A stretch of 64,000 nt of DNA from IMG/VR virus record IMGVR_UViG_3300047557_001530, positions 32,001 through 96,000 of that record; one strand, given 5' to 3'. A program made the position numbers and the translations under genes. Below, one piece after another: positions 1-17,688 of this stretch (position 1 is the first letter of the stretch; each line of letters starts with the position of its first letter). Under the pieces are notes generated by a model. The model searched no databases and was not told the origin of the DNA. It saw only the letters and a program-made list of their open reading frames with translations. Source of the DNA: a virus.

Positions 1-2
1 AG

Positions 3-560
3 GGAGTACAGGGTGTACAGGGCCTTCAAGGATTTTCTATTCAGGGTATTCAAGGTATTTTTGGTATTCAAGGTACTCAAGGACCTCAAGGTTTACAAGG
101 AATTCAAGGTGTTCAAGGTCCAAGAGGACAGCAAGGTATCCAAGGAATCCAAGGAGTACAAGGACCCCAAGGTGTTCAAGGTGGTGCTGGCACATCAGTA
201 AGAATTTTAGGAAACGTAGCAACAGAAAATGCGTTGCCAGGTTATCCAACTTCTTATAATGGAACTGTTGGCGATGCTTATATTGTAAATACAACTGGTT
301 TCTTGTGGGTTTGGTCTGGTACTGCTTGGATTGAAGCTGGTAGAATTTTAGGTCCTCAAGGTGCTCAAGGTGTTCAAGGAACTCAAGGTATTCAAGGTCC
401 TCAAGGATCTCAAGGTATTCAGGGTCCTCAAGGTGTTCAAGGACCTCAAGGTTTACAAGGAATTCAAGGACCTCAGGGGGTTCAGGGAGTACAAGGTGTA
501 CAAGGAGCACAAGGTCGTCAAGGAACACAAGGATTGCAAGGTCCTCAGGGTATTCAAGGA
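3..560 (+). repeat. 9-bp-period collagen-like coding repeats (caaggN-NNN), two tracts at about 3-180 and 352-560
   Basis: Repeated caaggt/caagga units. The 32-mer caaggacctcaaggtttacaaggaattcaagg occurs at 78-109 and 438-469. Confidence 0.9.
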
Positions 561-1946
561 TTTAATGCAATTACAGTAGTTAATGATATCAGCACAAATG
601 CTGATAGATATATTGTTTTTGAAGAAGCTACTTCTGGTGCTCAAACAGTAATTAATGTTTCTTCCACTAAACTAATCTTCAATCCTTCCACAGGTAATTT
701 GACCGTTGGTGGTGACACTAGAGCAAATACATTTATTCCTTTAAGTTCTTCTGTACCTTCTTACGGAATTTATCAGCCTGTATCTGGTGCTGTCGGTATT
801 TCAACAAATAGTCTAGAAAGATTTAGATTAGATACTTCAGGTAATGTTCTGATTGGTACTACAACAAATACTAATTCTTCCAGATTAGTTTCTGCTGGCA
901 CTATTTCTGAAACAGTTAATGCAGAACAATTTTTAGTAGCTTCTCAATTTGACGTTGGTGTTGCACCCAACCAAATTCCACTTAATCAATATCTTGGACA
1001 ATTAGCGTTCTTGGATATATACAGTCCATACGCATTAAGAAGAGATGGCGGAGGATCTGATGATGTAACGGTAGATTCAAATGGTAATTTAATTACAATT
1101 AATGAACTTTGTCTCAGCACTGATCGTTATAGATTAGCTTCTTCGCAAGCAAATTATACTTCATCTACTATTCAAACTTTAGATTCTATATCTACAGCAA
1201 CTTATAGATCAGCTAAGTATTTTGTTCAAGTAACTGCAACAAATCAAATTGCTACATTTGGAACAATAACTGGAGGAAGTTTCTATCTAGCAGGAACTTA
1301 TGTAAATGTTCCTTTAACTGGAGGAACTGGTTCTGGAGCAGTTGCAACAATTACTGTTAATGGTTCTTTATCCAATATTACTTCAGTTGCATCTAGCGTA
1401 TTTACATCAAACGGTCATGGATTAACGGCAAACCAACCATTAAGATTTAATGCCACTGTTGCAGGTACTCCTGGTGTTACTTCAACGTCAGCAGTTTATT
1501 ATGCAATTGTAGTTGATGCAAATACTTTCCAAGTTGCAACATCTTCTGGAGGTACTGCTGTAACTGGATTCACTGATAACGCAGCATTGAACGTAAGTAT
1601 TACTAAGTCTGGTGGTGTTTCGAGCATTACTTTAGTTGATGCTGGTTCTGGATTTACTGTAAATGATTCAATGACTGCTTCGGTTTCTAATTTAGGTGGT
1701 GCTACTGGAGGATCTGGATTTACTGTTCCTGTTGCCACACTAACATCAAATCATATGGTTTCGGATATTATTTTAATTCATGACGGAACTACTGCAGATA
1801 TTTTAGAATTAGCTAATATGAGCACTGCAAATATAACATTAGGAACATTCTCTACAGATATTTCAAGTTCTACTATGAGACTAAGATTTACTCCAGCATA
1901 TCAATACAATACAATTAAAGTCGCAAGACATGCATTTACCGTCTAG
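3..1946 (+). CDS. Collagen-like (Gly-X-Gln repeat) tail/virion fibre protein, 5'-truncated by the window edge
   Basis: The frame of ORF 234..1946 stays open back to position 3 ([18 protein letters not shown]...). It has two GXQ tracts and a C-terminal YRSAKY...IHDG domain of the kind seen in cyanophage virion proteins. Confidence 0.85.
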
Positions 1947-1954
1947 GAGTAGTC

Positions 1955-4345
1955 ATGGCAATATCTCAAAATTTTCCTAGTGAAGGTCCTAATTTATATG
2001 TCAATTTTGCTGGTTCAAAAACTTTAGATCCTAGGATTAATTTTTCTAGAGCTAGTACAGGAACTTATGTTGATGCAGATGGATTAATTAAAACTGCTGC
2101 AATTAATAGACCTAGGTTTGATCATAATATTCTTACAGGAGAATCTTTAGGACTATTGGTAGAGCCAGGAAGAACTAATTTATTAAGACAAAGTATTGTT
2201 AGACCAGATTTACCTGGAGATACTTATTCATTTTGGACTTCATTTATAGGCGGAACTACAATTAGACCATATGCTGAATTATCTCCAGATGGCACATTCA
2301 ATGCAGCATTAGTTCAGAACTCCACTGCATCAATTGGCGACATGTTGTTACGTTATGAACAATCTCTTGCTGGTGTTTCTGGGTTGGTTGACTCGATTTG
2401 GGTCAAAGCAGTTAGTGGTACTGTCACTGTTGCTATGTATGGCAGCCCAACGGCCCAAGACACAGTTACAAATGTGACATTTGGAACGCAATGGACCCGC
2501 CTTTCGATGAGAAGACCGTCTTCAGCTAACTATTTTCTCAAATTGATAAAAATAAGTGCAACTCCAGTATCTTTTTATGTATGGGGAGGACAATGTGAAA
2601 GTGGTACTTTTTCAACTAGCTTTATTCCAACTTTACCCACATTTACTTCAAGGGCTTCTTCAGCAACTTTTTACGACTCTACAGGAATCCTAAGAACTGC
2701 AGCAACTAACGTAGCAAGAAGTAATGCGTTTTTTCCAGATAGTTCTGGGGTGTTTAGAAGTGGTGGGTTGTTGCTTGAATCTGCTGCTACAAATTTGTGT
2801 ATTAGATCAGAAACATTCACTGCAGCTCCATGGACAGACTTTACTGCAAATGTAAGCATAACAGCAAATCAATTAGATCCTGCTGGTGGAACTACAGCAT
2901 CACTAGTAACTCATACCGCAGGAACAAGTCGCCACAGAGTATCAGAAAAAATTTCAACCACAAGAGTATCTAGAAGTTTTTATGTAAAAAAAACAAATCA
3001 ACGTTACATTTATGTTGGAGATCAAAATGCCAGTAATTATAGTCCAAATTATAGATTTGATTTAGATACTGGTACTGGTGCTGTAATTGCGGATTCATTT
3101 GGATATAATTATGGGTATTCTATAACTAAAGTTGCAAATGAATTTTACAGGATCTGGGTAGATTGTGTATCACAAGATATAACTCAAATAGTTGCATCAA
3201 ATACTTTATCATCATCAGGAACAAATCCATTATCAACAAATGAAACCGCAACAGGTACAGAATCTTTTATTATTTGGGGATATCAAGTTGAAACAGGAAC
3301 TTATTTCACTTCATACATTCAAACAACAGGAGCAACAGCAACAAGAGCAGCAGATGTAACAACAAGTTCTGCAGTAACTCGTAGTGCGGATATAGTAAGT
3401 TTATCAGGAACTTCGTCAATTGTAAATACTTCTGGAGGAACTTTATTATCTTTAAGTAACCAAACTTCTCCTGTAATCGATACAACATCTTTATCAATTA
3501 ATTCAACATCATTATCAACTTCCAGACCAGTTAGAGAAATTTTATATTATCCTACAGTATTAACTTCAACTACCATAAAACAAATTAAAGCTTTTCCTTC
3601 ATTTGTTACTAATGGTTTGCAATTACATTTAGATGCTGGCAATACTAGTTCTTATTCAGGATCTGGAAGTACTTGGACAGATTTAAGTGGTAACGGACGT
3701 AACTTTACTTTAGTTAATTCTTCTTATTATGCATTTGATTCTGCTAATGAAGGTTCTATAAGATTGACAAGAACATTACCCCCTACAGCAGAAACTGGAG
3801 GTTATGCAGAACATACTGGTTCTGGAGCATTAGCGGTTACTACGTATCTTTATAATAATCATACTACAGAAATTTGGGCAAGAATTAATGATAGAAATCC
3901 AACAAACCATACTGTAAATGAAACTCAAAGTGCATTATTTGTTTATCGTGGGTGGCATTCTATGTTTTACTATGGATCTAGTGCATTAACTTATACAGTT
4001 TATGATGGTGCTTCAACTGCAAGAGATGCAGTAGGGTTATCAATAGGAACATCAGGAACAGATATTATTCAAGGAACATGGTTTAATGTAGTAGTTACAA
4101 GAAATGGAAATATTTTTAGTACTTATATTAACGGAGTTTTAAAAGGATCAATCACATTAATTACTAGTTCTTCTGGTGTTAATACAACGAATAGTATTAG
4201 AATCGGAATGGCAAATCCATCAGGTGAAGATTTTAGTTGGCACGCAGATGCTAATGTTTCATGTGCAAGGATGTATAACATAGCTCTTACTGCGTCTGAA
4301 GTTGCACAAAACTTCAACGCCCTTCGTGGTCGTTATGGTATCTAA
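1955..4345 (+). CDS. Modular fibre/adhesin protein: 2 nested modules plus C-terminal LamG/ConA-like domain
   Basis: 796 aa. N-terminal LDPRINFSRAS...GLLVEPGRTN, internal FTSRASSAT module, C-terminal GLQLHLDAGN...NFNALRGRYGI LamG-type domain. Confidence 0.75.
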   Translation: MAISQNFPSEGPNLYVNFAGSKTLDPRINFSRASTGTYVDADGLIKTAAINRPRFDHNILTGESLGLLVEPGRTNLLRQSIVRPDLPGDTYSFWTSFIGGTTIRPYAELSPDGTFNAALVQNSTASIGDMLLRYEQSLAGVSGLVDSIWVKAVSGTVTVAMYGSPTAQDTVTNVTFGTQWTRLSMRRPSSANYFLKLIKISATPVSFYVWGGQCESGTFSTSFIPTLPTFTSRASSATFYDSTGILRTAATNVARSNAFFPDSSGVFRSGGLLLESAATNLCIRSETFTAAPWTDFTANVSITANQLDPAGGTTASLVTHTAGTSRHRVSEKISTTRVSRSFYVKKTNQRYIYVGDQNASNYSPNYRFDLDTGTGAVIADSFGYNYGYSITKVANEFYRIWVDCVSQDITQIVASNTLSSSGTNPLSTNETATGTESFIIWGYQVETGTYFTSYIQTTGATATRAADVTTSSAVTRSADIVSLSGTSSIVNTSGGTLLSLSNQTSPVIDTTSLSINSTSLSTSRPVREILYYPTVLTSTTIKQIKAFPSFVTNGLQLHLDAGNTSSYSGSGSTWTDLSGNGRNFTLVNSSYYAFDSANEGSIRLTRTLPPTAETGGYAEHTGSGALAVTTYLYNNHTTEIWARINDRNPTNHTVNETQSALFVYRGWHSMFYYGSSALTYTVYDGASTARDAVGLSIGTSGTDIIQGTWFNVVVTRNGNIFSTYINGVLKGSITLITSSSGVNTTNSIRIGMANPSGEDFSWHADANVSCARMYNIALTASEVAQNFNALRGRYGI

Positions 4346-4371
4346 ATAATTAATAAAATAAATTTAAGACT

Positions 4372-4626
4372 ATGTACGAAAATCGACAGTTTGCTATATT
4401 TGCAACATCAGAATTAGATAAAATTGATTTCACTCAAGTTTTAGAAACTTCTGTAGATACTGTAAGAAAATCTGTAGATGGAACTAAGACTTTTGTAAAG
4501 TGGGATTCTGAAGAAATTCCTACATGTATTCAAGAATTAACTACACTTCAAGGTTATTATACTTATGAACAAATGCTTGAGCTTTTAAATACTTCTGAAT
4601 GGTCATCTAAGGAACAGAGTGTATAA
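4372..4626 (+). CDS. Small conserved hypothetical protein, possible fibre chaperone or cap
   Basis: 84-aa ORF inside the fibre array, preceded by a CTAAATA late promoter. Function inferred from position only. Confidence 0.6.
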   Translation: MYENRQFAIFATSELDKIDFTQVLETSVDTVRKSVDGTKTFVKWDSEEIPTCIQELTTLQGYYTYEQMLELLNTSEWSSKEQSV

Positions 4627-7600
4627 ATGTCATTTACACAGAATATTCAATCCGTTGCTCCTACATTAAATATAAATTTTACTAAATCTAATCGACTAGA
4701 TTCTCGTATTAGTTTTAGTAGAAGTAGCTCTGGCACTTATTTTAATAGCCAAGGTGTTTTAACTACTGCAGCAACTAATGTACCAAGATTTCAAAATGAA
4801 TTTAATTCAACTTTAAATCGTTGGGTTCCTAAAGGATTGTTGGTTGAAGAAAGTAGAACAAATAAAGCATCAAATTCAGTAAACTTTATTTCTGGTTCTA
4901 CCATCATTCCTTATTATGAAATTGCTCCAGATGGCACTCTTACAGCTTTAGCTTATCAACCCCCAAGTGATGCTAATAGTGCAGGAACTCACGAAAAATA
5001 TGCAATATTTCCTGGGCTAACAATTAATGTAGGAGATACTGTAACTATTTTTGCAAAAAGAAAACCAGGATCAGCTTTAAAATTTTTGCACCTAAGAATA
5101 TTTACTAGTGGTTGGCTTAATTCGTATAATTTAGAAACTGGTGCAGTGAGTATTAATGACCCTGCTATGCCTGGATCTATGACAAATGTAGGTAACGGAT
5201 GGTGGAGATGTGAGTTTACTAATTTTGCTTCTGCAGGAAATACAACACTCCTAAGAATATGGGTTAGCACTAATGGTAGTATAGGAAATGCAACTAATGG
5301 AGATCCTATGTATCTTTGGGGTCTTCAATCAGAAACTGGTATCAATCCAACTTCATACATTTCAACATTTCCTTTATTTTCTTCCAGGGCTTCATCTGCA
5401 ACCTATTATGATTCTACTGGAATTATTAGGACAGCAGTAACTAACGAAGCGAGAAGTGCAGCATTTTTACCAAGTAGCACAGGAACATTTGCAAGAGTTG
5501 GAACTTTACTTGAAAGTGCTGCTACTAATTTACTTCAATATAGTGAAGACTTTAGGAATGCTATGTGGTCAAAAAGTGAGGTAACTTTAATTAGCAATAC
5601 GCCAGCAACTACTGCTCCAGACGGATCACTAAATGCAACTAAACTTGTTGAAACTAGTGCAACATCAGTACACAGACTTAGTATGTCAGTGAATCCTTCT
5701 GGTTTTCAAGACTGGGCATTAAGTGTATTCGCCAAAGCTGCTGAAAGAAGCGTACTTACATTGATGCCTGCTACCACAGGTGGCGGAGATTCCCCTGTTT
5801 ATTTTGACCTATCTGCTGGCACATTTACCATTGCTGGATCTAGTGCGGTTAATGCTTCTATGCAAAAGCTGTCTAATGGTTGGTATCGGTGCTCTGTTTA
5901 TGATGGTGCTGCTGGGTTTGGCTATCCATTTATTGGTCTTGTTGCTACATCTGGAACTCATTCATATACAGGTGATGGAACTTCAGGTGTATATATTTGG
6001 GGTGCTCAGTTAGAAGTAAATTCATTTTCTACGTCATATATTAAATCAATGCCTTCATTTACATCAAGGGCATCTTCTGCAACTTATTATGATGTCAATG
6101 GAATTTTAAGAACTGCTGCTGTTAATGAAGCAAGAAGTAATGCATATTTACCAGACAGTTCTGGGGTGTTTAGAAGTATTGGATTATTATATGAAGGTGC
6201 TGCAACAAATCTTGCTACCCATAGTGAACAACTAAGTAGTTGGGGTAACAATGGAAATGGTATAATAATTACTACAAATTCAGAAATTGCTCCAGATGGA
6301 ACTTTGACCGCAGATAGATTATCTCAATCTTCTGTCACTAATGCAAATAGAACTTTGTTTAATCCTGCTAGTACCGTAAGATCAGGACAAATACTTACAA
6401 CAAGTTTTTGGATGAAAAAAGTGAGTGGGACTAACACAGAACCATCTATTTCCGTATGTGGTATTGGTGGTGGTCCTTGTCAAACTATTACTGTTACATC
6501 TGATTGGAAAAGATATACATACACTTTTACTGCAATCAATGATGGGGGAAATTATGAAGTAGGATCTATTAACATTGGTTGGAATCTCAATGGTGCGGCA
6601 AATAATAATGTGTATGCTTTATGGGGATTCCAAGTTGAAGTTGGTTCTTTAGCAACATCATACATCTCAACGACAAATGCAACAGTAACAAGATCTGCTG
6701 ATGTAGTTTCAAGTTCAACTGTAACAAGAGCAGCAGATGTAACTACTAGTGCAACAGCAACGAGAGCTGCAGATAATGTAAGTATTAGTGGATCTAATTT
6801 TACAAATATTCATAATCCAACGGAAAATACTTTAGTTTCTATTGGAGAAGAAAATCTTTATACATTATCTTCAACTGCATTAACAATAAATTCAAATTCT
6901 AAATTAGATAGTACAGTTTCTAATCTAATATATTATCCAAAAGCACTCCAATATGCTTCATTAAAATCATCTAGTGCATATCCTGCTATTATTTCTGATG
7001 GTTTAGTATTAAATCTTGATGCAAGTAGTAGAAAATCATACAGAACTCCTGGTGCTACTTGGAGAGATTTGAGTATTAATAATATTAGTGCTACATTATC
7101 TAACGGTCCTACTTTTAATAGTTCTAATAGTGGTTCAATTGTTTTTGATGGTGTTGATGATCGAATAACCTTAGGAACTCCAACAGCACTAACTGCTTTA
7201 TTTGGAACTAATGCAGTTTCTGTAGAAGTTTGGTTGAGAAGATCAGCAAATATTACTTCGCAAAAAATTGTATTTGATTCAGGAACTAATGAATATATTC
7301 AGATGGATATAAATTCAAATCAATTATCTTTTGCTATAGGAACACCAACAAGCGTTAGATCTGCTAGAAGTGCTACTTTAGATTTAGATGTTTGGTATCA
7401 TTATGTTGGTGTGTACAATGGAACAACAATTACAACATATTTAAATTCTGTCCAAAGTTCTCAGATAGCACAAACTGGAAATATTGCAACTGACAGTGGA
7501 GGATTTTTTATAGCATCTTATACATCAGGTTTTAATTTTCCTGGAAGAATTGCTTCGGTTAAAGTTTATAACAAAGCATTATCTTCTACAGAAGTTACTC

Positions 7601-7638
7601 AAAACTTCAACGCACAACGTAGACGTTTTGGAATCTAA
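4627..7638 (+). CDS. Modular fibre/adhesin protein: 3 nested modules plus LamG domain
   Basis: 1003-aa paralogue of 1955..4345, with three WGxQxE...TSYI module ends and a C-terminal GLVLNLDAS...NFNAQRRRFGI domain. Confidence 0.75.
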   Translation: MSFTQNIQSVAPTLNINFTKSNRLDSRISFSRSSSGTYFNSQGVLTTAATNVPRFQNEFNSTLNRWVPKGLLVEESRTNKASNSVNFISGSTIIPYYEIAPDGTLTALAYQPPSDANSAGTHEKYAIFPGLTINVGDTVTIFAKRKPGSALKFLHLRIFTSGWLNSYNLETGAVSINDPAMPGSMTNVGNGWWRCEFTNFASAGNTTLLRIWVSTNGSIGNATNGDPMYLWGLQSETGINPTSYISTFPLFSSRASSATYYDSTGIIRTAVTNEARSAAFLPSSTGTFARVGTLLESAATNLLQYSEDFRNAMWSKSEVTLISNTPATTAPDGSLNATKLVETSATSVHRLSMSVNPSGFQDWALSVFAKAAERSVLTLMPATTGGGDSPVYFDLSAGTFTIAGSSAVNASMQKLSNGWYRCSVYDGAAGFGYPFIGLVATSGTHSYTGDGTSGVYIWGAQLEVNSFSTSYIKSMPSFTSRASSATYYDVNGILRTAAVNEARSNAYLPDSSGVFRSIGLLYEGAATNLATHSEQLSSWGNNGNGIIITTNSEIAPDGTLTADRLSQSSVTNANRTLFNPASTVRSGQILTTSFWMKKVSGTNTEPSISVCGIGGGPCQTITVTSDWKRYTYTFTAINDGGNYEVGSINIGWNLNGAANNNVYALWGFQVEVGSLATSYISTTNATVTRSADVVSSSTVTRAADVTTSATATRAADNVSISGSNFTNIHNPTENTLVSIGEENLYTLSSTALTINSNSKLDSTVSNLIYYPKALQYASLKSSSAYPAIISDGLVLNLDASSRKSYRTPGATWRDLSINNISATLSNGPTFNSSNSGSIVFDGVDDRITLGTPTALTALFGTNAVSVEVWLRRSANITSQKIVFDSGTNEYIQMDINSNQLSFAIGTPTSVRSARSATLDLDVWYHYVGVYNGTTITTYLNSVQSSQIAQTGNIATDSGGFFIASYTSGFNFPGRIASVKVYNKALSSTEVTQNFNAQRRRFGI

Positions 7639-7665
7639 AATAAATACTGATAAACATCAATACCC

Positions 7666-10600
7666 ATGAGTATCTCACAAAATTTATCATCCATTAGACC
7701 TACTTTAAATTTAAATTTTGCGAGATCTAAAAATTTAGATCCTAGAATTACTTTCACTAGAAGTAGTTCAGCAACTTATATTGATAAAAATGGTATATTA
7801 AAAACGGTTGCTACTAATATTCCTCGTTTTGGTTATAATGGATTAACTGGAGAATCTACAGGATTATTATTAGAACCAAGTAAAACAAATTTATGTAACT
7901 ATACTAATTATGTAAAATTGTGGGCTAATAAAGATGGTATTCCTCAGATGATAAGTGAAAATACCGATCTTGCTCCAGATGGAACATATACTGCTACCAG
8001 AATAATTTTATCTCCAGTAAATTATTTTACTGGTAAACTATTTACATTTTCTTTTACTAGCACAGTAAAGTGCTTAAGTATTTTTGCTAAAAATCCTTTA
8101 TCAGGTACTAATTCTTTAGCTATTGAAGGTGCAGGTAGAATTTTAATTAATTTTAATGGACAAAGTATTACAAGTATAAGTGTCGATAATGGTTCTCCAT
8201 CATATACTTATGATACACTAGCAAATGGGTGGTATCGTTTTACTATTATTGAGGATGGAACTAGTAATAATAGATTTACTATGATGGGGTGGTTTAATGG
8301 AACTGGTAAACCAATTCTTCTTTGGGGAGCAATGGCTGAATATAGTCCCCGCCCGACATCACATATACCAGCCCCAGCAACATTTACTTCAAGGGCTTCT
8401 TCAGCAACCTTCTACGATTCTACAGGAATCTTAAGAACTGCCGCAACTAATGTAGCAAGATCAGATGCTTATTTTCCTGACAGTTCTGGTGTGTTTAGAA
8501 GCACTGGGTTATTACTTGAAAACTCAGGAACTAATTTACTTTATTATAGTCAAGATTTTGATGTGACTTCTTGGTGGGGATCTACTGGGGCAAATGTGTT
8601 TAAAGCCCCGCAAACATTAGCTCCAGACGGAACATATACTGCAGACTTTTTGGTAGAAGATACTTCAACTGGAAATCATAGTTTATCAACTACGAATAAT
8701 GTTTATACCGTAGTAGCTGAATATTATACTCATAGTGTATATGTTAAAGCTGCAGGAAGAACTCAGATTGGTATAGGATATAGAGATTCTGGATTTACAT
8801 TATTTGATTTAACAACCAAACAAATAACAATTGTTCAGCAGATAGCAAACGGATCTATTGTAGCAAATAATATAGATACATTACCAAATGGATGGTTTAG
8901 ATTATCGTCCACTATTCTGGGTAGTGGTGTTAATTATAACCGTAGGGCTCAAATATTTTTATGTAGTGGAGGAACTGCTTCGTATGCGGGTGATGGTGTT
9001 TCTGGTGCTTATATATGGGGATATCAAGTAGAACAAAGTTCATATGCGACATCTTATGTTCCTACACCAGCTGGATTTTCTTCTAGAGCATCTACTGCAA
9101 CTTACTTTGATTCTACTGGTTCTTTACGAACTGCGGCAATAAATGAACTTAGAAATAATGCTCATTTTCCTGATAATTCTGGAGTTTACAGAAATGTAGG
9201 AAATTTATTAGAACCAGCAGCAACAAATTTAACAGGAAGTTCTGTATTTTCAAATGGTTGGAGTCAATTAGGATCTGGTAGATTTACAGCTGCTGCTGAT
9301 CCTGTTGGTGGTATGCAAGCTACTTTAGTTACACCATTATATACTACTTCATATAATGGTTTTCAAAATAATGCAAGTATTGCTGGAGGAACATATATCG
9401 TTTCTTTTTATGCTAAAGCAAATGGATACAACTGGGTTGGATTAAAAGCCTGGGCAGGAAATCCTTGGTTTTATACAGCCGCTGGTTATAATTTAAGTAC
9501 TTTAGCACCATTTACTTATATTCAAGGTGGTCAAACTGATTATATATTCACTCCATTTAATATTCAAAATGCTGGTAATGGATGGTATAGAGTTAGTTTT
9601 AAAGTAGTTGCTTCTGGAGGGTTTAGTAGCCAACTTCAAATTCTTGTTTATTCTGATTTACCAAGTCAACATGCTATTAATTGGACGCCAAATGGAACTT
9701 CAGGTGCATTTTTTTGGGGGGTTCAAATTGAATCTAGTCCAATAGCTACATCATATATTCCAGTATTACCAACATTTACATCAAGGGCATCCACTGCAAC
9801 TTATTTTGATTCTAATGGTATTTTAAGAACTGCTGGGGTTAACGTTGCTAGATCTGATGCATATCTTCCAAATACAAGCGAAGTTTATAGACCAGTAGGT
9901 TTATTGTTAGAAGGATCCTCAACTAATCTAGCACGAAACTCAGAAGACTTTACGCAATGGGCATCTAATGGAAATGGCATTGGTGTTTCTGCAAATCAAA
10001 GTGTTGCATTAGATCGCACAACTACAGCAGATCATTTATTTCAAACTGCTGCTACAGGAGCTGGTCGTTGGATTGGTTCAGTTTCAAGAACAGTTACTGG
10101 AGGAACTACTTATACTATAAGCTGTTGGGTAAGAAGAGTTAGTGGTACTGATGGTCAACCATCAATACAAATGGGATTTATTAATAGCGGAGAATATGGT
10201 ACAAGTATAACTTCTCAAGTTACTTCTTCATGGAAACGTTTTTCTGTTACAGTTACTCCAGTAGCCACCGTAAACACATGGATAGGATTTAGTATTGGGT
10301 GGAGTGATTCTGGAGTTGCAAATAATAATGTTTATGCTGTTTGGGGATTCCAAGTTGAAGTTGGTGTTACTGCTACATCATATATTCCTGTAACTAATGC
10401 AGATGTAACCCGTGCTGCTGATGTTTCTACTTCAGCATCGGTAACTAGATCTGCCGATATCTTAACTACTCAATCAACGGCAACAAGAGCCTCAGATGTA
10501 TCATCAAGTTCTGCAGTAACAAGAGCAGCAGATTCTGCAAGTATTACTGGAACAAACTTTAGTAGTTGGTATAATTCTTCTGGCGGTACATTATTATCTT

Positions 10601-11421
10601 TAAGAGAAGGTAACTCTTCGGTATTAACGACATCTTCATTAACTTTAAACTCTAGTTATACAAAAACTAATACTATTTCAAATCTTCTATATTATCCAAC
10701 GGCACTTTCATATAATGCAATTGAAAGAATGAATGGATCTATGCCATTAGTGTCTTCTAATTTAGCTTTAAATTTAGATGCAGGGATATTATCATCTTAT
10801 TCAGGTCTTGGTACGACTTGGACAGATTTAACAGGAAACAATAATAATGGAACATTAACAAATGGTCCAACATACAGCTCATCTAATCAAGGTTTTATCA
10901 GATTAGATGGTGTAAATGACTTTATAGATTTTGGAAATAACACGACATTATATAATGCTTATGATACATCATTTACACAAGAGTTTGCAGTAAGAATGCT
11001 ATCTGGTGCTTCTACATTCAGAACACTGTTTAGAGTTGATGATTGGTCTAGAATTTCTACACAAATTTCTATTCTAGGAATAGCATTTACAATTGGATAT
11101 TCTACCCCATCTGATAATTTAATTCATAATACTTCACTAGATTATAATCAATGGTATTTGGTTACTACTGTATGGTCTAAATTAAATACACAAAAAATTT
11201 ATATTAATGGAATTTTAGTAGCACAAACTATACCAACTATTTCTAATTACACAGGAATTCAAGGAACAGCGGGAGGAGTAAATATTGGTAGAGGTCATTC
11301 AGATCCATTTACAAATAATCTTAATGCAGATATAGGGTTCTTTAGACATTATACAAGAGTTTTAACAGACTCAGAAATTAGACAAAATTATAATGCTACT
11401 AAATATCGTTTTGCTGCTTAA
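7666..11421 (+). CDS. Modular fibre/adhesin protein: 4 nested modules plus LamG domain
   Basis: 1251-aa paralogue with four modules and a C-terminal NLALNLDAG...NYNATKYRF domain. Confidence 0.75.
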   Translation: MSISQNLSSIRPTLNLNFARSKNLDPRITFTRSSSATYIDKNGILKTVATNIPRFGYNGLTGESTGLLLEPSKTNLCNYTNYVKLWANKDGIPQMISENTDLAPDGTYTATRIILSPVNYFTGKLFTFSFTSTVKCLSIFAKNPLSGTNSLAIEGAGRILINFNGQSITSISVDNGSPSYTYDTLANGWYRFTIIEDGTSNNRFTMMGWFNGTGKPILLWGAMAEYSPRPTSHIPAPATFTSRASSATFYDSTGILRTAATNVARSDAYFPDSSGVFRSTGLLLENSGTNLLYYSQDFDVTSWWGSTGANVFKAPQTLAPDGTYTADFLVEDTSTGNHSLSTTNNVYTVVAEYYTHSVYVKAAGRTQIGIGYRDSGFTLFDLTTKQITIVQQIANGSIVANNIDTLPNGWFRLSSTILGSGVNYNRRAQIFLCSGGTASYAGDGVSGAYIWGYQVEQSSYATSYVPTPAGFSSRASTATYFDSTGSLRTAAINELRNNAHFPDNSGVYRNVGNLLEPAATNLTGSSVFSNGWSQLGSGRFTAAADPVGGMQATLVTPLYTTSYNGFQNNASIAGGTYIVSFYAKANGYNWVGLKAWAGNPWFYTAAGYNLSTLAPFTYIQGGQTDYIFTPFNIQNAGNGWYRVSFKVVASGGFSSQLQILVYSDLPSQHAINWTPNGTSGAFFWGVQIESSPIATSYIPVLPTFTSRASTATYFDSNGILRTAGVNVARSDAYLPNTSEVYRPVGLLLEGSSTNLARNSEDFTQWASNGNGIGVSANQSVALDRTTTADHLFQTAATGAGRWIGSVSRTVTGGTTYTISCWVRRVSGTDGQPSIQMGFINSGEYGTSITSQVTSSWKRFSVTVTPVATVNTWIGFSIGWSDSGVANNNVYAVWGFQVEVGVTATSYIPVTNADVTRAADVSTSASVTRSADILTTQSTATRASDVSSSSAVTRAADSASITGTNFSSWYNSSGGTLLSLREGNSSVLTTSSLTLNSSYTKTNTISNLLYYPTALSYNAIERMNGSMPLVSSNLALNLDAGILSSYSGLGTTWTDLTGNNNNGTLTNGPTYSSSNQGFIRLDGVNDFIDFGNNTTLYNAYDTSFTQEFAVRMLSGASTFRTLFRVDDWSRISTQISILGIAFTIGYSTPSDNLIHNTSLDYNQWYLVTTVWSKLNTQKIYINGILVAQTIPTISNYTGIQGTAGGVNIGRGHSDPFTNNLNADIGFFRHYTRVLTDSEIRQNYNATKYRFAA

Positions 11422-11448
11422 AATAAATACCAATAAACATTCAATAAA

Positions 11449-12675
11449 ATGAGTAAGTTTCAAACTATAACTTCTAGTGCTGAGTTAGATTATCCTAAAG
11501 TTCTTCCAACTTTAGATCTTAATTTTGATGCAACAAAAACATTAGATCCTAGAATTATTTTTACTAGAAGTTCTGGAGGAACTTATGTTGATGAAACTGG
11601 TATCATTAGAATTGCTGGTGTTAACCAACCAAGATTTGATCATAATCCTTTGACTGGTGAATGTCTTGGTTTGTTGGTGGAAGAGAGTAGGAGTAATAAC
11701 CAAGCATTCAGTAATACTTTTAATTCAGCAGGATTATCTGGAGCCGATTATAGGTGGCAAGATATTGTTGCAGTAACTGCACAAAATAATTTATATCCCG
11801 ATCCATTCGGTACTAATACTGCAACAAGAATCATTCCTACAACTACTTCTACTTCACATTATATTGGTAGATATCAAGCATATGGAACTGCAGCACATGC
11901 ACATTCTGTATTTTTAAAACCTGCTGGATATAGTAGAGTATTGGTAGAAGTAAACGGAAATACATTTACTGCAAATCTTTCTGGTAGTGGTAGTTTTGCA
12001 AATAATAATTCTACTACATATGCAACAAAAATTCAAGCATTTTCAAACGGGTGGTATAGATTAGAATGGATTTGGAATAATACTGGCGGCGGTGGTGCTA
12101 ATACGACAATGCCAAGAATTTTTATTTTAGACAATTCTGGTAATTCTACATTTGCTGGAAATGGTGCATCAGGCATTGATTTTTTTGGATATCAGCAAGA
12201 ATTTGGTTTCTTTTGTACATCATACATCCCAACAGGAGCTTCTGCATTAACAAGGGCTAGAGATAATTTAAGTATTTCTTTAACACCTTGGTACAATAAC
12301 AATGAAGGCACAGTATTATTTAATTCTTCTCTTTCTGACAGCACTGATGGCACACCATCTATAATTTTTGGTCCATATCTTTGGGCCACTGCTCCTAATT
12401 TATGGAGAACAAGTGGAAATCAAGGTATACTAAATACTAGCTCTTCAAGGACAACAAGAACTAGACATATATTTGCACTTAGACAAAATGATCATGCTCT
12501 TTGTATTAATGGAGGATCTGTGTCAACACCTTTTGCAAATAATTCTCATTCTCCATCTGGAGGTTCTGTAGTAGGATTTAACAGTAGTGGATCAACACTA
12601 AATGGATATTTAAATCGTTTAACATATTGGCCTATAAGATTATCCAATCGGACATTACAAAGACTTACCGAATAA
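11449..12675 (+). CDS. Single-module fibre/adhesin paralogue
   Basis: 408 aa. Same N-terminus (PTLDLNF...LDPRIIFTRSSGGTY...GLLVEESRSN) and a lectin-like C-terminal domain ending RLTYWPIRLSN. Confidence 0.7.
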   Translation: MSKFQTITSSAELDYPKVLPTLDLNFDATKTLDPRIIFTRSSGGTYVDETGIIRIAGVNQPRFDHNPLTGECLGLLVEESRSNNQAFSNTFNSAGLSGADYRWQDIVAVTAQNNLYPDPFGTNTATRIIPTTTSTSHYIGRYQAYGTAAHAHSVFLKPAGYSRVLVEVNGNTFTANLSGSGSFANNNSTTYATKIQAFSNGWYRLEWIWNNTGGGGANTTMPRIFILDNSGNSTFAGNGASGIDFFGYQQEFGFFCTSYIPTGASALTRARDNLSISLTPWYNNNEGTVLFNSSLSDSTDGTPSIIFGPYLWATAPNLWRTSGNQGILNTSSSRTTRTRHIFALRQNDHALCINGGSVSTPFANNSHSPSGGSVVGFNSSGSTLNGYLNRLTYWPIRLSNRTLQRLTE

Positions 12676-12709
12676 TCATAAATAATTAAAAATAATAGAG
12701 AGATCTATC

Positions 12710-13057
12710 ATGCTTAAAGATTATTATTTAAAATTTGCTTCCAAAGAAGAAGCTCTTGAAGTGTTTTCTTCAATTTCAGAGCATACTATTACTAATCCAC
12801 AAACTCAAGAAGTAACAGTTTCTCAAGGTAACGGAACTTTTGCAATTGATGAAGTTGGTGTTATTTACAATAATGATGCAGTTTTTTCAACTGATCAAGA
12901 AACTGGAGAAATTACTTTAGTAACTCCAGCAACTTCCGTAGAAGGTTATCATTATAATTATAGAATTGTATTTGGTAACAATGAAGAAATTCCTCTACCA
13001 ACTGAATTAGAACCATACATAGTAACTCCCCAAACACCTGTTAGAGTTTGGTTCTAA
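12710..13057 (+). CDS. Small fibre-associated protein, putative assembly chaperone or tip protein
   Basis: 115 aa with the DYYLKF...GYHYNYR...PQTPVRVW pattern that I recall from ORFs following this type of fibre gene in other phages. Confidence 0.6.
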   Translation: MLKDYYLKFASKEEALEVFSSISEHTITNPQTQEVTVSQGNGTFAIDEVGVIYNNDAVFSTDQETGEITLVTPATSVEGYHYNYRIVFGNNEEIPLPTELEPYIVTPQTPVRVWF

Positions 13058-13096
13058 ATAATTAAAATTTTTCTGTACTACAGAGGTAACTAATAA

Positions 13097-13504
13097 ATGG
13101 CTAGTTTGATTGGATCAGCACCAAACCAAATTTCAACCAATGGAATGCTTGGTGAATTGGCATTTATGAATTCTTCTGGGATTACAGTAGAAAGAATTCA
13201 ATCTACTGTTGGTTTATCACAGACCTCACCAACATTCACTGGTGCTACAGTTACAACTAATGATTTTACTAACCTTGTTTTACAGCCCCAAGGAGGAAAC
13301 GTAGTCGTCAATGGTTCTGGTTCTGCACTAGCCACTACAACTACTTCTGGTTTTCTGTGTATAACTAGTTGTGCAGGAATTCCTTCTGGTGCTCCTGCTT
13401 CTGGTGCAATTCCCACTGGAATGGTTCCAATGATTGTTGATTCAACAAATAACAGATTGTATTTAAGAATTGGTTCTACTTGGCGTTATGCTACATTAAC
13501 GTGA
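13097..13504 (+). CDS. Small fibre-like protein sharing the GxAPNQIxxNxxLGxLAF motif with the collagen fibre
   Basis: 135 aa. SD-like gaggt upstream. C-terminal DSTNNRLYLRIGSTWR motif typical of fibre joints. Confidence 0.65.
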   Translation: MASLIGSAPNQISTNGMLGELAFMNSSGITVERIQSTVGLSQTSPTFTGATVTTNDFTNLVLQPQGGNVVVNGSGSALATTTTSGFLCITSCAGIPSGAPASGAIPTGMVPMIVDSTNNRLYLRIGSTWRYATLT

Positions 13505-13514
13505 GGAATTTGGT

Positions 13515-14765
13515 ATGAGTATAGACAATTTATCTGGTTCTACTGCGTCTTTAGATTATCCAGAATTTAGACCAACGTTAGATTTAAATTTTGCTAGAAC
13601 AAAAACATTAGATCCTAGAGTTACTTTTAGTAGAAGTTCTGGTGGTACTTTTGTTGGTCCTGATGGGTTGATTAAAATTGCTGGCGTAAATCAACCAAGA
13701 TTCGATCACAATCCTATTACTGGGGAATCTTTGGGATTGTTAATTGAAGAGAGTAGAATTAATTATGCAAGTCAATCTTTTGTTGCTATCAATTCAACAT
13801 TAGTTTCTTCTAACGATACAACATATCAACCTGTGCAAGGAGGTAGTGTTTATAGATTTAGAATAGGGGCAAGTGGATTACAATTTTATATTCCTTTATT
13901 TAATGCCCCTGGTTATTCTAGTACTGGATTATCTGATGTTTTAACATTTTATTTAAGATCTGATTTACCCGTTACTATTACTTCAAACGTTGATGGCGGG
14001 AATGCATTGAATTCAGGATTATATTTTAGTAACGGAACAACAACTAATTATAGTACATCTATTACTTCGCAGCCAGAACTACTAGGATTTACTAAGTATA
14101 CTATAGTTTATACTGCATTACAGACGAATGGCAATAATATTTCTAGAGCACAAATTAATGTAAGTGGTACTCAAGGAACTGATTTCTATGTTTTTGGTGC
14201 TCAATGGGAAAGTAGATCTATATACCCAACTTCATATATTCCAACTACCACTGCGTCCGTAACAAGAGCAGTTGATGTTGTTAATATGACTGGATCTAAT
14301 TTTAGTAGTTGGTTTAATTATAATTCATCTACTTTATATTACGAAGGAATTGTAAAAAGTGATTTTTACAATGGAACTCATTCTTATATAGCAACCATTG
14401 ATAGTGGTACAAATGATGGGTCTTTTTATATGAGAGATAGAATTGTATTATCTGGCAATACAATAACTTTCCAATCTACATTACCTTCTAGTGGATCTAC
14501 TGTTGGAAATGTGTCTCTTTCATATGGTAAGCCTGTTGTAAATACTTTCAACAAATATGTACATGCATTAGACTCATCTGGCGGTGCTTCTGCTTCTCTT
14601 AATGGAAATCTTGGTACTTCATATTTTTCTAATTCAATTCATGTTCCTAATACATTGCAATTAGGAATGCATGGAACTGCATATAGAACAAGTTGTATTA
14701 TTTCTAGACTTACCTATTGGCCTAGAAGATTACCAAATAATATGCTTCAAAATCTTACTAGATAA
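13515..14765 (+). CDS. Single-module fibre/adhesin paralogue
   Basis: 416 aa, same architecture as 11449..12675, ending RLTYWPRRLPN. Confidence 0.7.
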   Translation: MSIDNLSGSTASLDYPEFRPTLDLNFARTKTLDPRVTFSRSSGGTFVGPDGLIKIAGVNQPRFDHNPITGESLGLLIEESRINYASQSFVAINSTLVSSNDTTYQPVQGGSVYRFRIGASGLQFYIPLFNAPGYSSTGLSDVLTFYLRSDLPVTITSNVDGGNALNSGLYFSNGTTTNYSTSITSQPELLGFTKYTIVYTALQTNGNNISRAQINVSGTQGTDFYVFGAQWESRSIYPTSYIPTTTASVTRAVDVVNMTGSNFSSWFNYNSSTLYYEGIVKSDFYNGTHSYIATIDSGTNDGSFYMRDRIVLSGNTITFQSTLPSSGSTVGNVSLSYGKPVVNTFNKYVHALDSSGGASASLNGNLGTSYFSNSIHVPNTLQLGMHGTAYRTSCIISRLTYWPRRLPNNMLQNLTR

Positions 14766-14768
14766 ATC

Positions 14769-16667
14769 ATGACCGTATACAGAGTACAACCAGCAAAATC
14801 TTCTGAGGCTTCTTACCCAAGATTAAGACCTACTTTTGATGAAAATTTTATTGAGACTAAAACATTAGATCCATCAATGACTTTCAGTAGAAGTTCTGGT
14901 GGTACTTTTGTTGGTCCTGATGGCTTGATTAAAATTGCTGGAGTTAATCAACCAAGGTTTGATCATGATTTAACTACAGGTACATGCAATGGTTTATTAG
15001 TAGAAGAAAGCAGAGGTAATAGCCTTCCATATTCTCAAGGATTTACTACAGGTTGGCATACAGCAAGAGCACAAGTAGTAACAGGTCAATTAGACCCAAT
15101 GGGAGGAACTAATGCAATATTAGTAAGACAAACCAATGGAACCTCTACTAGGCAGTATATTTCTAATTTATCATCTACAAGAATTACTGCAAATTTTACA
15201 GTAAGTGTTTTTGTAAAATATGTTAATTATGATTTTGTTATTTTAACAGGTGCAGACGAAGATAGTGGATCTACTGGTGATCGTTTTGGATATTTGCTAC
15301 CAAAATTAAGATTCCAATTTTCTACCGAAACAATTGCATTTCAAGAAAGTACTTGGCCTGGTACTTCTACATCAACTTTAGGATATGGATTTCAAAAATA
15401 TCCTAATGGATGGTATAGACTATGGTTTACTAGAAATACTGCAGTAAGAAATAATTATTGGGGTATTGCTGTACAATCCAATCCTTTTGTTGATATAAAT
15501 GATCTAAATTTAGTGACTGGGGATGGATCTTCTTCTGTACTTGCATTTGGTTTTCAGGTAGAAACTGGATTCAGACCAACAAGTTATATTATAACAGGAG
15601 CTTCTGGTGTTACTAGAGCAGCAGATAGACCAATCATTAATAGAAGTATAAACACTTCAGGAACTCTATATGTTGAAGCAATTACACCAACAACTTCTGG
15701 GGTTATTGTTGCTACAGACAATGGTACTCAAGGATTATCAATTACCTTAAATAATGCGAATGATTCTAGATATGCTTTGTATTATAATACAAATAGATAT
15801 TTACAAACAAGTTCTTCAAGTACATTAATTCCAACAGAAATTAGAGACATAACTATTCCGTCAAATATGAATAGAATTTCTTTGGGATATTCTGAATTGG
15901 CTTCTAGTGGTTATATAAATGGAACTATAAAGAGATTTACTTACTATGCAGCTCCTTTAACAGAACCTAATATCAAAGCTTTAGTTGGAAATACTAATAA
16001 TACATTTAGAGATCCTTTTGGTATTGTTACTCCAGGATTAGTTTTAAATCTTGATGCTGGTAATGTTATTTCTTATTCTGGAGCTGGGACAGCATGGAGA
16101 GATTTGAGTGGTAATGGTCTTAATGGAACATTAATAAATGGTCCATCTTATAATAATTCAAATAATGGATCGGTAGTTTTTGATGGAACTAATGATCTAG
16201 TATCAATTACTTATAATTCTGTATTTAATTTAGTTACATCAACAACTATTAATATTTGGTATTTTACTTCTGGTAGTAGTGGATATATTCTGAATAGGGA
16301 TAAAGGTGGTTGGGAAGGTTACAATATAGGACCAGGGAGTATATCTTATTCTGGTCAAGTTGGAGGAAATGATTTTGACTACAGTTGGGGCTATTCAACT
16401 AATAGATGGAATATGCTTACATGGGTCGTAAATAGACAAAGTGGATTTTACTTAATTTATTTAAATGGCGTTCAACAAGGAACATCATTTGCTATTACAC
16501 ATCCAGCATTAAATTCAACAAATCCACTTTATTTGGGATCTAGAGGAGGTGTTCCTGACAATTTCTTCAATGGCAGAATATCCAATGTTTTAGTATACAA
16601 TAGAGCATTATCTGCAACAGAAATTACACAAAATTTTAATGCTGTTAGATCTAGATATGGAGTTTGA
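14769..16667 (+). CDS. Single-module fibre/adhesin paralogue plus LamG domain
   Basis: 632 aa. Shared N-terminus and a C-terminal GLVLNLDAGN...NFNAVRSRYGV domain. Confidence 0.7.
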   Translation: MTVYRVQPAKSSEASYPRLRPTFDENFIETKTLDPSMTFSRSSGGTFVGPDGLIKIAGVNQPRFDHDLTTGTCNGLLVEESRGNSLPYSQGFTTGWHTARAQVVTGQLDPMGGTNAILVRQTNGTSTRQYISNLSSTRITANFTVSVFVKYVNYDFVILTGADEDSGSTGDRFGYLLPKLRFQFSTETIAFQESTWPGTSTSTLGYGFQKYPNGWYRLWFTRNTAVRNNYWGIAVQSNPFVDINDLNLVTGDGSSSVLAFGFQVETGFRPTSYIITGASGVTRAADRPIINRSINTSGTLYVEAITPTTSGVIVATDNGTQGLSITLNNANDSRYALYYNTNRYLQTSSSSTLIPTEIRDITIPSNMNRISLGYSELASSGYINGTIKRFTYYAAPLTEPNIKALVGNTNNTFRDPFGIVTPGLVLNLDAGNVISYSGAGTAWRDLSGNGLNGTLINGPSYNNSNNGSVVFDGTNDLVSITYNSVFNLVTSTTINIWYFTSGSSGYILNRDKGGWEGYNIGPGSISYSGQVGGNDFDYSWGYSTNRWNMLTWVVNRQSGFYLIYLNGVQQGTSFAITHPALNSTNPLYLGSRGGVPDNFFNGRISNVLVYNRALSATEITQNFNAVRSRYGV

Positions 16668-16707
16668 TAACTCAAATAAATAGTTGAAATGATTCTTTTG
16701 TTCTTTC

Positions 16708-17688
16708 ATGAGTGAAACTTTTGTCAAGTATGCACTGGAAAATAATGGTACAATTGCTCCTTTATTAATTCCATCACAAGATTTAAATGGTCCTGGATTA
16801 ACAAATCCATCAGTCTTAGTTATAGAAGGCAGAATTTTTGTAAATCTCAGAAATATAAATTATACCCTATATCACTCAGAGAAAAAGAAGTATGAGCATG
16901 TTTGGGGTCCTTTAGTTTATATTCATCCAGAGAATGAATTAAAACTTAAAACAGTAAATATTTTCTGTGAATTAAATCCAGACCTTAGTATTAAAAGTTA
17001 TTCAGCAATAGATACTAGTGCTTTAGATCAAGAACCCATTTGGGAATTTGTTGGTCTTGAAGATGGTAGATTAATTTATTGGGATAATAAATTGTACCTC
17101 TGTGGTGTAAGAAGAGACACCACAACGAATGGTCAAGGTAGAATGGAGTTATCTGAATTAGTTTTGGATGGCTCTAGAGTAGTGGAAATTGCAAGAACTC
17201 GTATTCCTTGTCCAGGAAACGATGATTCATATTGCGAAAAAAACTGGATGCCTATCTTAGATCAACCATATAGATTTGTCAAGTGGTCTAATCCACTAGA
17301 ATTAGTTGACGTTGATATGGGAGGTATTACTTGCCATACTGTTTTAAATGGTCCTCAAATTCCAGGGCATAAAGATTGGCGAGGAGGGTCTCAAGTTGTT
17401 AGATGGGGAGATTATTATATTTGTCTTGTTCACGAAACAAATCTTCTATGGAGCGAGGCAGGTAGAAAAGATGCAGTCTACCGTCATAGATTTATTATTT
17501 GGGACGAGCATTGGAGATTTGTCAACTGTTCTAGAGAGTTTTCATTTATGAATGCAGACATTGAATTTGCAGTTGGTATGGATTTATATCAAGATCATTT
17601 TTTAATTACATTTGGTTATCAAGATAACGCAGCATATATTCTTAAAGTTCCAGAAATTGTAGTGGAGAATTTTATCAATGAACAATAA
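16708..17688 (+). CDS. Five-bladed beta-propeller glycosidase/phosphorylase-like protein (GH130-like)
   Basis: Motifs NPSV, GLEDGRL, EKNWMP, RGGSQ and IEFAVGM resemble the GH130-type propeller. Confidence 0.6.
   Translation: MSETFVKYALENNGTIAPLLIPSQDLNGPGLTNPSVLVIEGRIFVNLRNINYTLYHSEKKKYEHVWGPLVYIHPENELKLKTVNIFCELNPDLSIKSYSAIDTSALDQEPIWEFVGLEDGRLIYWDNKLYLCGVRRDTTTNGQGRMELSELVLDGSRVVEIARTRIPCPGNDDSYCEKNWMPILDQPYRFVKWSNPLELVDVDMGGITCHTVLNGPQIPGHKDWRGGSQVVRWGDYYICLVHETNLLWSEAGRKDAVYRHRFIIWDEHWRFVNCSREFSFMNADIEFAVGMDLYQDHFLITFGYQDNAAYILKVPEIVVENFINEQ

Follow-up and report, generated by a model that had tools for sequence, protein, structure and literature searches.

Balanced opening and closing strands and a predicted nested architecture in a family of putative cyanophage adhesins

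Rcc01080, the head spike fibre of the gene transfer agent (GTA) of Rhodobacter capsulatus (RcGTA), is known from experiment as an appendage of a phage-like particle that binds capsular polysaccharide (PMC10218006), and there is one head fibre subunit per head spike (PMC7296036). Beyond residues 2-10 its fold is known from predictions only, and nesting has not been described for it. We analyzed a stretch of viral DNA of 64,000 nucleotides (positions 32,001 to 96,000 of the IMG/VR record IMGVR_UViG_3300047557_001530; hereafter the window), in which six paralogous genes located between positions 1955 and 16667 (P0001 to P0006) encode relatives of Rcc01080, with E values of 4e-18 to 4e-61. Like the modules of the window proteins, Rcc01080 has an opening strand (TRATSATY); its core ends in WGAQLE...S.IPT, and VTRAAD is its one closing strand. 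It differs in having one module and one closing strand where the longer window proteins have several, and in its N-terminal anchor (the ILGLGLGL star).

The best solved relatives of one module, with the returning terminal strand included, are the baseplate wedge/triplex proteins Pa193 gp46 (PDB 9B45) and E217 gp45 (PDB 8ENV). These differ from the window proteins in that a single module lies inside a baseplate wedge protein. In alignments made with hidden Markov models (HMMs), no opening motif was printed for either of them, and the alignments ended at "PVT", before any closing-type motif.

The initial annotation of the window had proposed that, in the longer genes, each new module was inserted inside the previous one, just before its closing strand, and had named no earlier description of this architecture. 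Domain insertion is common, however, and recursive nesting within one family has a precedent in Si3 of cyanobacterial RNA polymerase beta', in which SBHM/HABAS domains are recursively inserted at six levels, in the order A1-B1-C-B2-A2 (PMC13114784, PMC10895346, PMC10120043). The principle is therefore not new, although in the literature searched we found no paper on nesting in the GTA head-spike-fibre family or in a jelly-roll lectin unit. As in the window proteins, copies of one domain family are inserted inside one another in Si3. However, the Si3 unit is a small sandwich-barrel hybrid, unrelated in fold to the jelly-roll unit of roughly 230 aa; it belongs to an enzyme of the cell and not to an adhesin of a virion; and Si3 does not come as a set of paralogues graded in depth within a genome. 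The same jelly roll (Z 9-12) also occurs in the tandem carbohydrate-binding module (CBM) arrays of glycoside hydrolases, e.g., CBM22-1-CBM22-2 of Xyn10C (PDB 4XUP), with several copies per chain and avidity, but those copies are joined by single head-to-tail linkers, whereas nested junctions would be crossed twice. Plain tandem junctions exist in the GTA_spike_fiber family too, and need no extra closing strand.

From the evidence set out below, we consider it probable that the six genes encode paralogous, nested virion-surface adhesins of a T4-like cyanomyovirus, bracketed in last-in-first-out order.

Opening and closing strands in the six paralogues and their homologues

The proteins share a module that starts with F(T/S)(S)RxSxxT...GLLxE...(T)N, here termed the opening strand and GLLxE element, and ends with (W/F)GxQxE...TS(Y/F/H)(I/V). 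They also contain TRxxD motifs, here termed closing strands. The features are as follows.

1955-4345, plus strand: P0001, 796 aa; modules, read as nested, at aa 28-226 and 227-458; two closing strands
C-terminal part of P0001: a short beta domain, then Laminin_G_3 at aa 633-784
3341-3391, plus strand: closing array of P0001, TRAAD at aa 463 and TRSAD at aa 475
4627-7638, plus strand: P0002, 1003 aa; modules at aa 28-247, 248-473 and 474-682; three closing strands
C-terminal part of P0002: Laminin_G_3 at aa 844-990
6688-6774, plus strand: closing array of P0002, TRSAD, TRAAD and TRAAD at aa 688, 700 and 712
7666-11421, plus strand: P0003, 1251 aa; modules at aa 28-236, 237-467, 468-700 and 701-909; four closing strands
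C-terminal part of P0003: a short beta domain and a lectin-like C-terminal domain
9763-10425, plus strand: putative innermost unit of P0003, aa 700-920, made up of the fourth opening strand, the fourth jelly roll and closing strand 1
10408-10533, plus strand: closing array of P0003, TRAAD, TRSAD, TRASD and TRAAD at aa 915, 927, 940 and 952
11449-12675, plus strand: P0004, 408 aa; one module and one closing strand, TRARD (aa 268, nt 12250-12264)
C-terminal part of P0004: a full C-terminal beta domain
13515-14765, plus strand: P0005, 416 aa; one module and one closing strand, TRAVD (aa 250, nt 14262-14276)
14769-16667, plus strand: P0006, 632 aa; one module and one closing strand, TRAAD (aa 282, nt 15612-15626)
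C-terminal part of P0006: a beta domain, then Laminin_G_3 at aa 472-619

A motif scan found 2, 3, 4, 1, 1 and 1 module ends (WGxQxE...TSYI) in P0001 to P0006, respectively, and the numbers of TRxxD motifs (2, 3, 4, 1, 1 and 1) matched these exactly; the same counts per protein were obtained with small HMMs built on the twelve modules. The ratios of 2/2, 3/3 and 4/4 in the longer genes and 1/1 in the other three, as read in the initial annotation, were therefore reproduced, and the positions it had given for the TRxxD strands (3341-3391, 6688-6774, 10408-10533, 12250, 14262 and 15612) were exact. The TRxxD motifs of the multi-module genes follow one another at intervals of 12-13 aa directly behind the last TSYI; the array of P0003 is modeled as eight short strands with a period of 6 aa. 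The internal modules have no TRxxD after TSYI, which leads directly into the next F(T/S)SRAS strand. Because a looser pattern, TR..[D/E/N], gave only one extra match in the six proteins (TRNGN in P0001) and no further TRxxD, the arrays are not a product of chance.

The two kinds of strand also resemble each other. The internal opening strand (TSYIP-xxx-TFTSRAS) is similar to the closing strand (TSYIP-xxxx-VTRAAD), with the arginine at an offset of +8 from the proline in both cases; the likeness is seen where internal modules start, e.g., at 2639-2680, 5377-5420 and 8380-8420, and when aa 236-246 of P0003 are compared with aa 909-920. It may be a trace of the origin of the junctions, or the opening strand may touch the preceding module.

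The initial annotation had proposed that modules be counted against TRxxD strands in homologues. A further 343 homologues were converted into strings of four tokens: a for the opening strand, B for the GLLxE element, C for the core end and c for the closing strand. The numbers did track each other: k was equal to m in 61 of the 62 homologues that gave clean (aBC)^k c^m parses, with k from 1 to 4 (3 at 1/1, 31 at 2/2, 21 at 3/3 and 6 at 4/4), and the sole unequal parse has VTKAAD as its second strand. Among 117 shorter homologues, the pattern was aBCc, i.e., 1/1, in 91 and aBCaBCcc in 6. Arrays of five closing strands were found in the metagenomic sample. In the alignments of homologues, the R and D of the closing strand were invariant and the T nearly so.

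Other homologues reveal what is being counted. Many four-module proteins have three closing strands, and these have exactly one junction without the FxRxSxAT strand, which reads TAYTPTT..ITNYIP.LQTA..N.ARFD...GLLIEE.RTN instead. In proteins whose four to six jelly rolls are joined head to tail and that possess a single opening strand, the closing strand is single too. In serial forms every part is closed before the next one starts: P0087 comprises two single units in series, and P0023 two parts of two modules with a pair of closing strands after each. A "virion structural protein" of the cyanophage S-TIM54 (OP053362.1, L001:3830-6910) has four cores, two opening strands and two closing strands in the order open-core-core-close-core-open-core-close, a mixture of tandem, serial and nested forms that is nevertheless balanced at 2/2. 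The general rule is therefore one of balanced brackets between opening and closing strands, and the jelly-roll cores are not the unit that is counted. The claim of the initial annotation that the number of strands equals the number of modules is true in the window, because every module there has an opening strand, but does not hold for homologues generally, in which closing strands follow opening strands. The same was observed when all 231 long homologues with at least one core were parsed with imperfect patterns: opening and closing counts were equal in 58% of these, compared with 25% after shuffling, and Spearman's rho was 0.56 for opening versus closing strands but 0.32 for cores versus closing strands.

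Pairs of closely related proteins that differ by a single unit occur naturally. The metagenomic orthologue P0007 is about 84% identical to P0003 throughout, except for one clean gap of 221 aa. What is missing is aa 700-920 of P0003: the gap opens just behind the TSYIP of module 3, takes in the fourth opening strand and the fourth jelly roll, and extends to closing strand 1. Similarly, P0185 has two modules and P0258 has one; they are 81% identical in module 1 and differ by an open-to-close block of 234 aa. Entire units, from opening to closing strand, are therefore gained or lost at the proposed site; the block lies after the TSYIP of the preceding module, as expected from the insertion just before the closing strand that the initial annotation had inferred. 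In the DNA, the repeat families shared among the six genes were 60-80% identical over 45-241 nt, and no long near-identical blocks that could act as recombination substrates were seen at module borders within 1955-16667 (seed 14, minimum length 40).

Family, fold and predicted order of strand pairing

The NCBIfam profile NF048003 (GTA_spike_fiber) matched 2, 3, 4, 1, 1 and 1 stretches in P0001 to P0006, with scores of 153, 283.6, 313.5, 91.3, 48 and 84.4 bits, respectively, all above the curated cut-off of 36; the end of the profile aligns onto the opening strand of the next module. All modules match NF048003 and align with one another, i.e., host and insert belong to the same family, which has 51,974 cluster representatives at E <= 0.001. 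Rcc01080 was homologous by phmmer (E = 4e-18 with aa 19-278 of P0004, and 1.4e-29 with P0003) and by profile (E = 4e-61), the alignment continuing through the closing strand VTRAAD. PHROG 5939 ("tail protein") also matched, although the name "tail protein" used by PHROG and RefSeq is an annotation only.

AlphaFold2 models of the window proteins matched the solved structures of Pa193 gp46 and E217 gp45 with Z scores of 17.3-19.7 and a root-mean-square deviation (rmsd) of 2.8-3.2 Å over 196-207 residues (2.8-2.9 Å for Pa193 gp46), and the profile E value for these two proteins was 1e-26. In a structure search with the models, the core matched the jelly rolls of CBM4, CBM16, CBM22 and CBM29 (Z 9-12). 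The threshold of Pfam PF02018 (CBM_4_9) was not reached, the best score being 18.9 bits (aa 762-867 of P0003) against 25.9. Because the similarity is at the level of the fold only, we call the core CBM-like rather than a member of CBM_4_9. Two other named PDB matches were rejected as solved structures of the module, which is missing from their modeled residues: only residues 2-10 of the RcGTA head fibre are modeled in 6TB9 (PMC7296036), and Sf11 gp17 in 9OCC is modeled at residues 3-165 only, ending before the module (PMC12724387). The C-terminal domains of P0001, P0002 and P0006 matched Pfam PF13385 (Laminin_G_3) at 45.8, 73.2 and 52.6 bits (gathering threshold 27.6), whereas that of P0003 gave sub-threshold Pfam matches only, with PF07953 in the precomputed list of the database.

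The AlphaFold2 monomer models were made from alignments of 18-34 homologues of the same architecture, and strand pairing was read from the ranges of superpositions, not from contacts. The model of residues 1-565 of P0001 had a mean predicted local distance difference test score (pLDDT) of 76.8 and a predicted template modeling score (pTM) of 0.75, while that of residues 1-1035 of P0003 had a mean pLDDT of 75.8 and a pTM of 0.65. In both models the closing region is predicted to form beta strands of 3-4 residues every six residues, with block-mean pLDDT of 72-92; those of the P0001 array are at 462-464, 468-470, 474-476 and 480-483, with block means of about 89-92. A disordered TRxxD linker, the outcome named in the initial annotation as one that would count against nesting, is therefore not what the models predict.

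Residues 186-401 of Pa193 gp46 superposed on 237..470 of the two-module model, a range that takes in module 2 and closing strand 1. On the four-module model, the ranges for Pa193 gp46 and E217 gp45 were 477..935 and 469..936, i.e., module 3 plus the second closing strand; these spans contained 202-207 aligned residues at an rmsd of ~3 Å, and the strand concerned (aa 926-935) lies >225 residues beyond module 3. For module 4 a CBM-containing enzyme superposed on 752..917, which includes strand 1. Single-module proteins predicted in the ESM Atlas superposed on 473-932 (module 3 plus strand 2; 223 residues aligned) and on 240-945 and 239-943 (module 2 plus strand 3), and another ESM Atlas match, on 9-1026 with 306 residues aligned, took in the N-terminus, module 1, strand 4 and the C-terminal domain. 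The aligned lengths of 202, 223 and 306 fit one module plus a distant strand. For modules 4, 3, 2 and 1, the ranges ended at 917, at 932-936, at 943-945 and at 1004 or beyond, respectively, which is a last-in-first-out order. As judged from these ranges, completion in reverse order is predicted for all four modules of P0003, single-module structures superposing on module i and closing strand k+1-i as the initial annotation had anticipated. In the four-module model, the host domain is discontinuous in sequence, with its last element returning behind the inserted domain.

In the architecture that we propose, a unit would begin with an opening element, consisting of FxRxSxATxxD and the G..A.N..R...GLLxE...TN hairpins, followed by a CBM4/9/22-like jelly roll with variable loops. 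It would end with the last core strand, WGxQxE...TSYIP, and, about 7 residues further on, the closing strand xTRxxD, which would come back to the base of the unit beside the opening element, leaving the two ends of the unit adjacent. Adjacent ends are a general requirement for an insertable domain, and a unit could be inserted into another because its own ends would lie together. The short loop that leads from TSYIP to the closing strand in the host unit would serve as the acceptor site, and repeated insertion would generate the order open1-core1-open2-core2-...-openk-corek-closek-...-close1, with a nesting depth of 1-4 in the window and up to 5 in the metagenomic sample. The chain would cross every junction twice, so that lectin domains of different specificity would be held on a common base, probably a rigid one, rather than as loose beads.

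Alternative arrangements of the strands

Several observations weigh against this architecture. The pairing is read from the ends of superposition ranges on AlphaFold2 monomers with a mean pLDDT of about 76, some of the templates are themselves predictions, and no solved structure holds a multi-module member. Covariation of the last two opening strands with the first two closing strands in 85 sequences, analyzed also by array length, did not discriminate between the two orders: the previous opening strand was associated more strongly with closing strand 2 than with closing strand 1, as nesting predicts, but the last opening strand did not distinguish the two, and relatedness of the sequences dominates. 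Motif parsing of the 232 long homologues leaves ~40% unbalanced, mostly by +/-1, because patterns are imperfect and some sequences are possibly fragments; our conclusions rest on the clean parses and on cases checked by hand. Finally, the internal TFTSRAS resembles xVTRAAD, with the same arginine offset from TSYIP, and it is there that the end of the NF048003 profile aligns; the internal opening strand may share in closing the preceding module. Taken further, the latter resemblance would suggest that the proteins are beads on a string, with each module closed by the TFTSRAS that follows it and the array forming part of the C-terminal domain, the nesting being an artefact of AlphaFold2 or of the aligner. 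The arginine offset and the profile end would be in line with this, as would the moderate confidence of the models, which were judged from superposition ranges. However, such an arrangement gives no reason why the length of the array should equal the number of opening strands, and explains neither the one strand present in single-module proteins nor the separate closing of each part in serial forms, while the superpositions end in the array and not at the next opening strand. We regard it as very improbable.

It is also unlikely, although less so, that the opening and closing strands form one common beta-sheet spine, or are swapped between the subunits of an oligomer, in which case their order need not be last-in-first-out. 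The closing array does form a regular zigzag of short strands with a 6-aa period, and jelly rolls occur without opening or closing strands, so that these strands lie outside the core fold. In addition, the ranges of some CBM-type templates stop between two closing strands, at 923-926, and the models are of monomers only. On the other hand, single-module templates, including the solved Pa193 gp46, fit one module together with one particular distant strand, at ~2.9 Å and in reverse order for all four modules, and the known relatives have a single copy of the module per chain and no trimeric shaft. We find it scarcely credible that the genes arose by ordinary tandem duplication and merely carry an unrelated, flexible spacer, rich in Thr, Ser and Ala and containing TRxxD, with a coincidental copy number. 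The array is indeed of low complexity (T, S, A, V, R and D) with a 12-aa period, and its DNA is repetitive (repeat families D4 and D6). Yet the equal counts in 61 of the 62 clean parses follow the opening strands and not the cores, the conservation of R, D and (nearly) T within the motif is not that of a spacer, the array is predicted to be ordered at the block-mean pLDDT given above, and natural indels take one module together with exactly one strand.

Genome context, proposed function and significance

The six genes lie in the late structural region of a T4-like cyanomyovirus. Downstream of the array are a glycosyl-/methyltransferase fusion and genes for the head-tail adaptor, sheath and portal, the portal sharing 78% identity with its counterparts in Synechococcus phages S-CAM3 and S-CAM1. 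Immediately upstream (234-1946) is a gene for a collagen-like tail fibre, with many matches to tail-fibre and collagen-like PHROGs; its product is a possible carrier of the adhesins or their neighbor in the virion. Three small open reading frames (ORFs) lie between the paralogues, at 4372-4626 (84 aa), 12710-13057 (115 aa) and 13097-13504 (135 aa). They could encode chaperones, adaptors or mini-fibres, and only the 115-aa ORF has a PHROG match (PHROG 18574, of unknown function). Right after the array, at 16708-20236, are a 326-aa ORF without a PHROG match and then the 852-aa fusion, which matches glucosyltransferase PHROG 2835 and methyltransferase PHROG 2675, so that glycan-modifying enzymes adjoin a battery of lectin-like virion proteins. 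The T4-type late promoter TATAAATA occurred 0 times in 1-17000 and 3 times in the whole window, compared with 5.8 expected by chance. In a related phage, a single metagenomic contig of 118,756 bp carries a 3, 3, 2 series of the same paralogues (P0008, P0012 and P0055), which suggests that the depth of single paralogues varies between close relatives.

The proteins would be located on the virion surface and act as multivalent adhesins that bind glycans of the host surface with avidity, and they would have a role in host range. The glycan-binding role is proposed because the RcGTA head fibre binds capsule, because the fold is CBM-like and because there are LamG domains at the C-terminus. The name "fibre" and the "stalk of tunable length" proposed in the initial annotation should be considered unproven, because an RcGTA head spike carries a single head fibre subunit.

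If the nested architecture is correct, it would be the first recursive self-nesting to be described in a fold of the jelly-roll/CBM type, and also the first in a receptor-binding protein of a virion. This example stands out for the clean grammar of its sequences, for paralogues of graded depth within a single genome and for the size of the family. The usual view of multi-domain phage adhesins is that of beads on a string, whereas balanced strands would predict a nested topology from the sequence. The mixed form comes from an isolated cyanophage, S-TIM54, and is thus accessible in culture. The bracket rule would also aid the annotation of thousands of uncharacterized metagenomic "tail proteins", with correct domain boundaries. 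The graded series, 1, 2, 3, 4 and 5 deep, together with the near-identical pairs, offers a stepwise view of the gain and loss of inserted domains. The adhesin family may be a natural, insertion-tolerant scaffold for stacking binding specificities. As candidates for determining host range, this one cyanophage would offer its twelve distinct lectin-like modules together with four lectin-type domains at C-termini, three of which scored as Laminin_G_3. We see an evenly balanced case for the broader proposal, i.e., that a phage/GTA adhesin family grows by a bracket grammar into double-stitched, branched bundles with up to at least five different glycan-binding domains, and that marine cyanophages may tune host recognition with sets of such proteins graded in depth from 1 to 4 in one genome.

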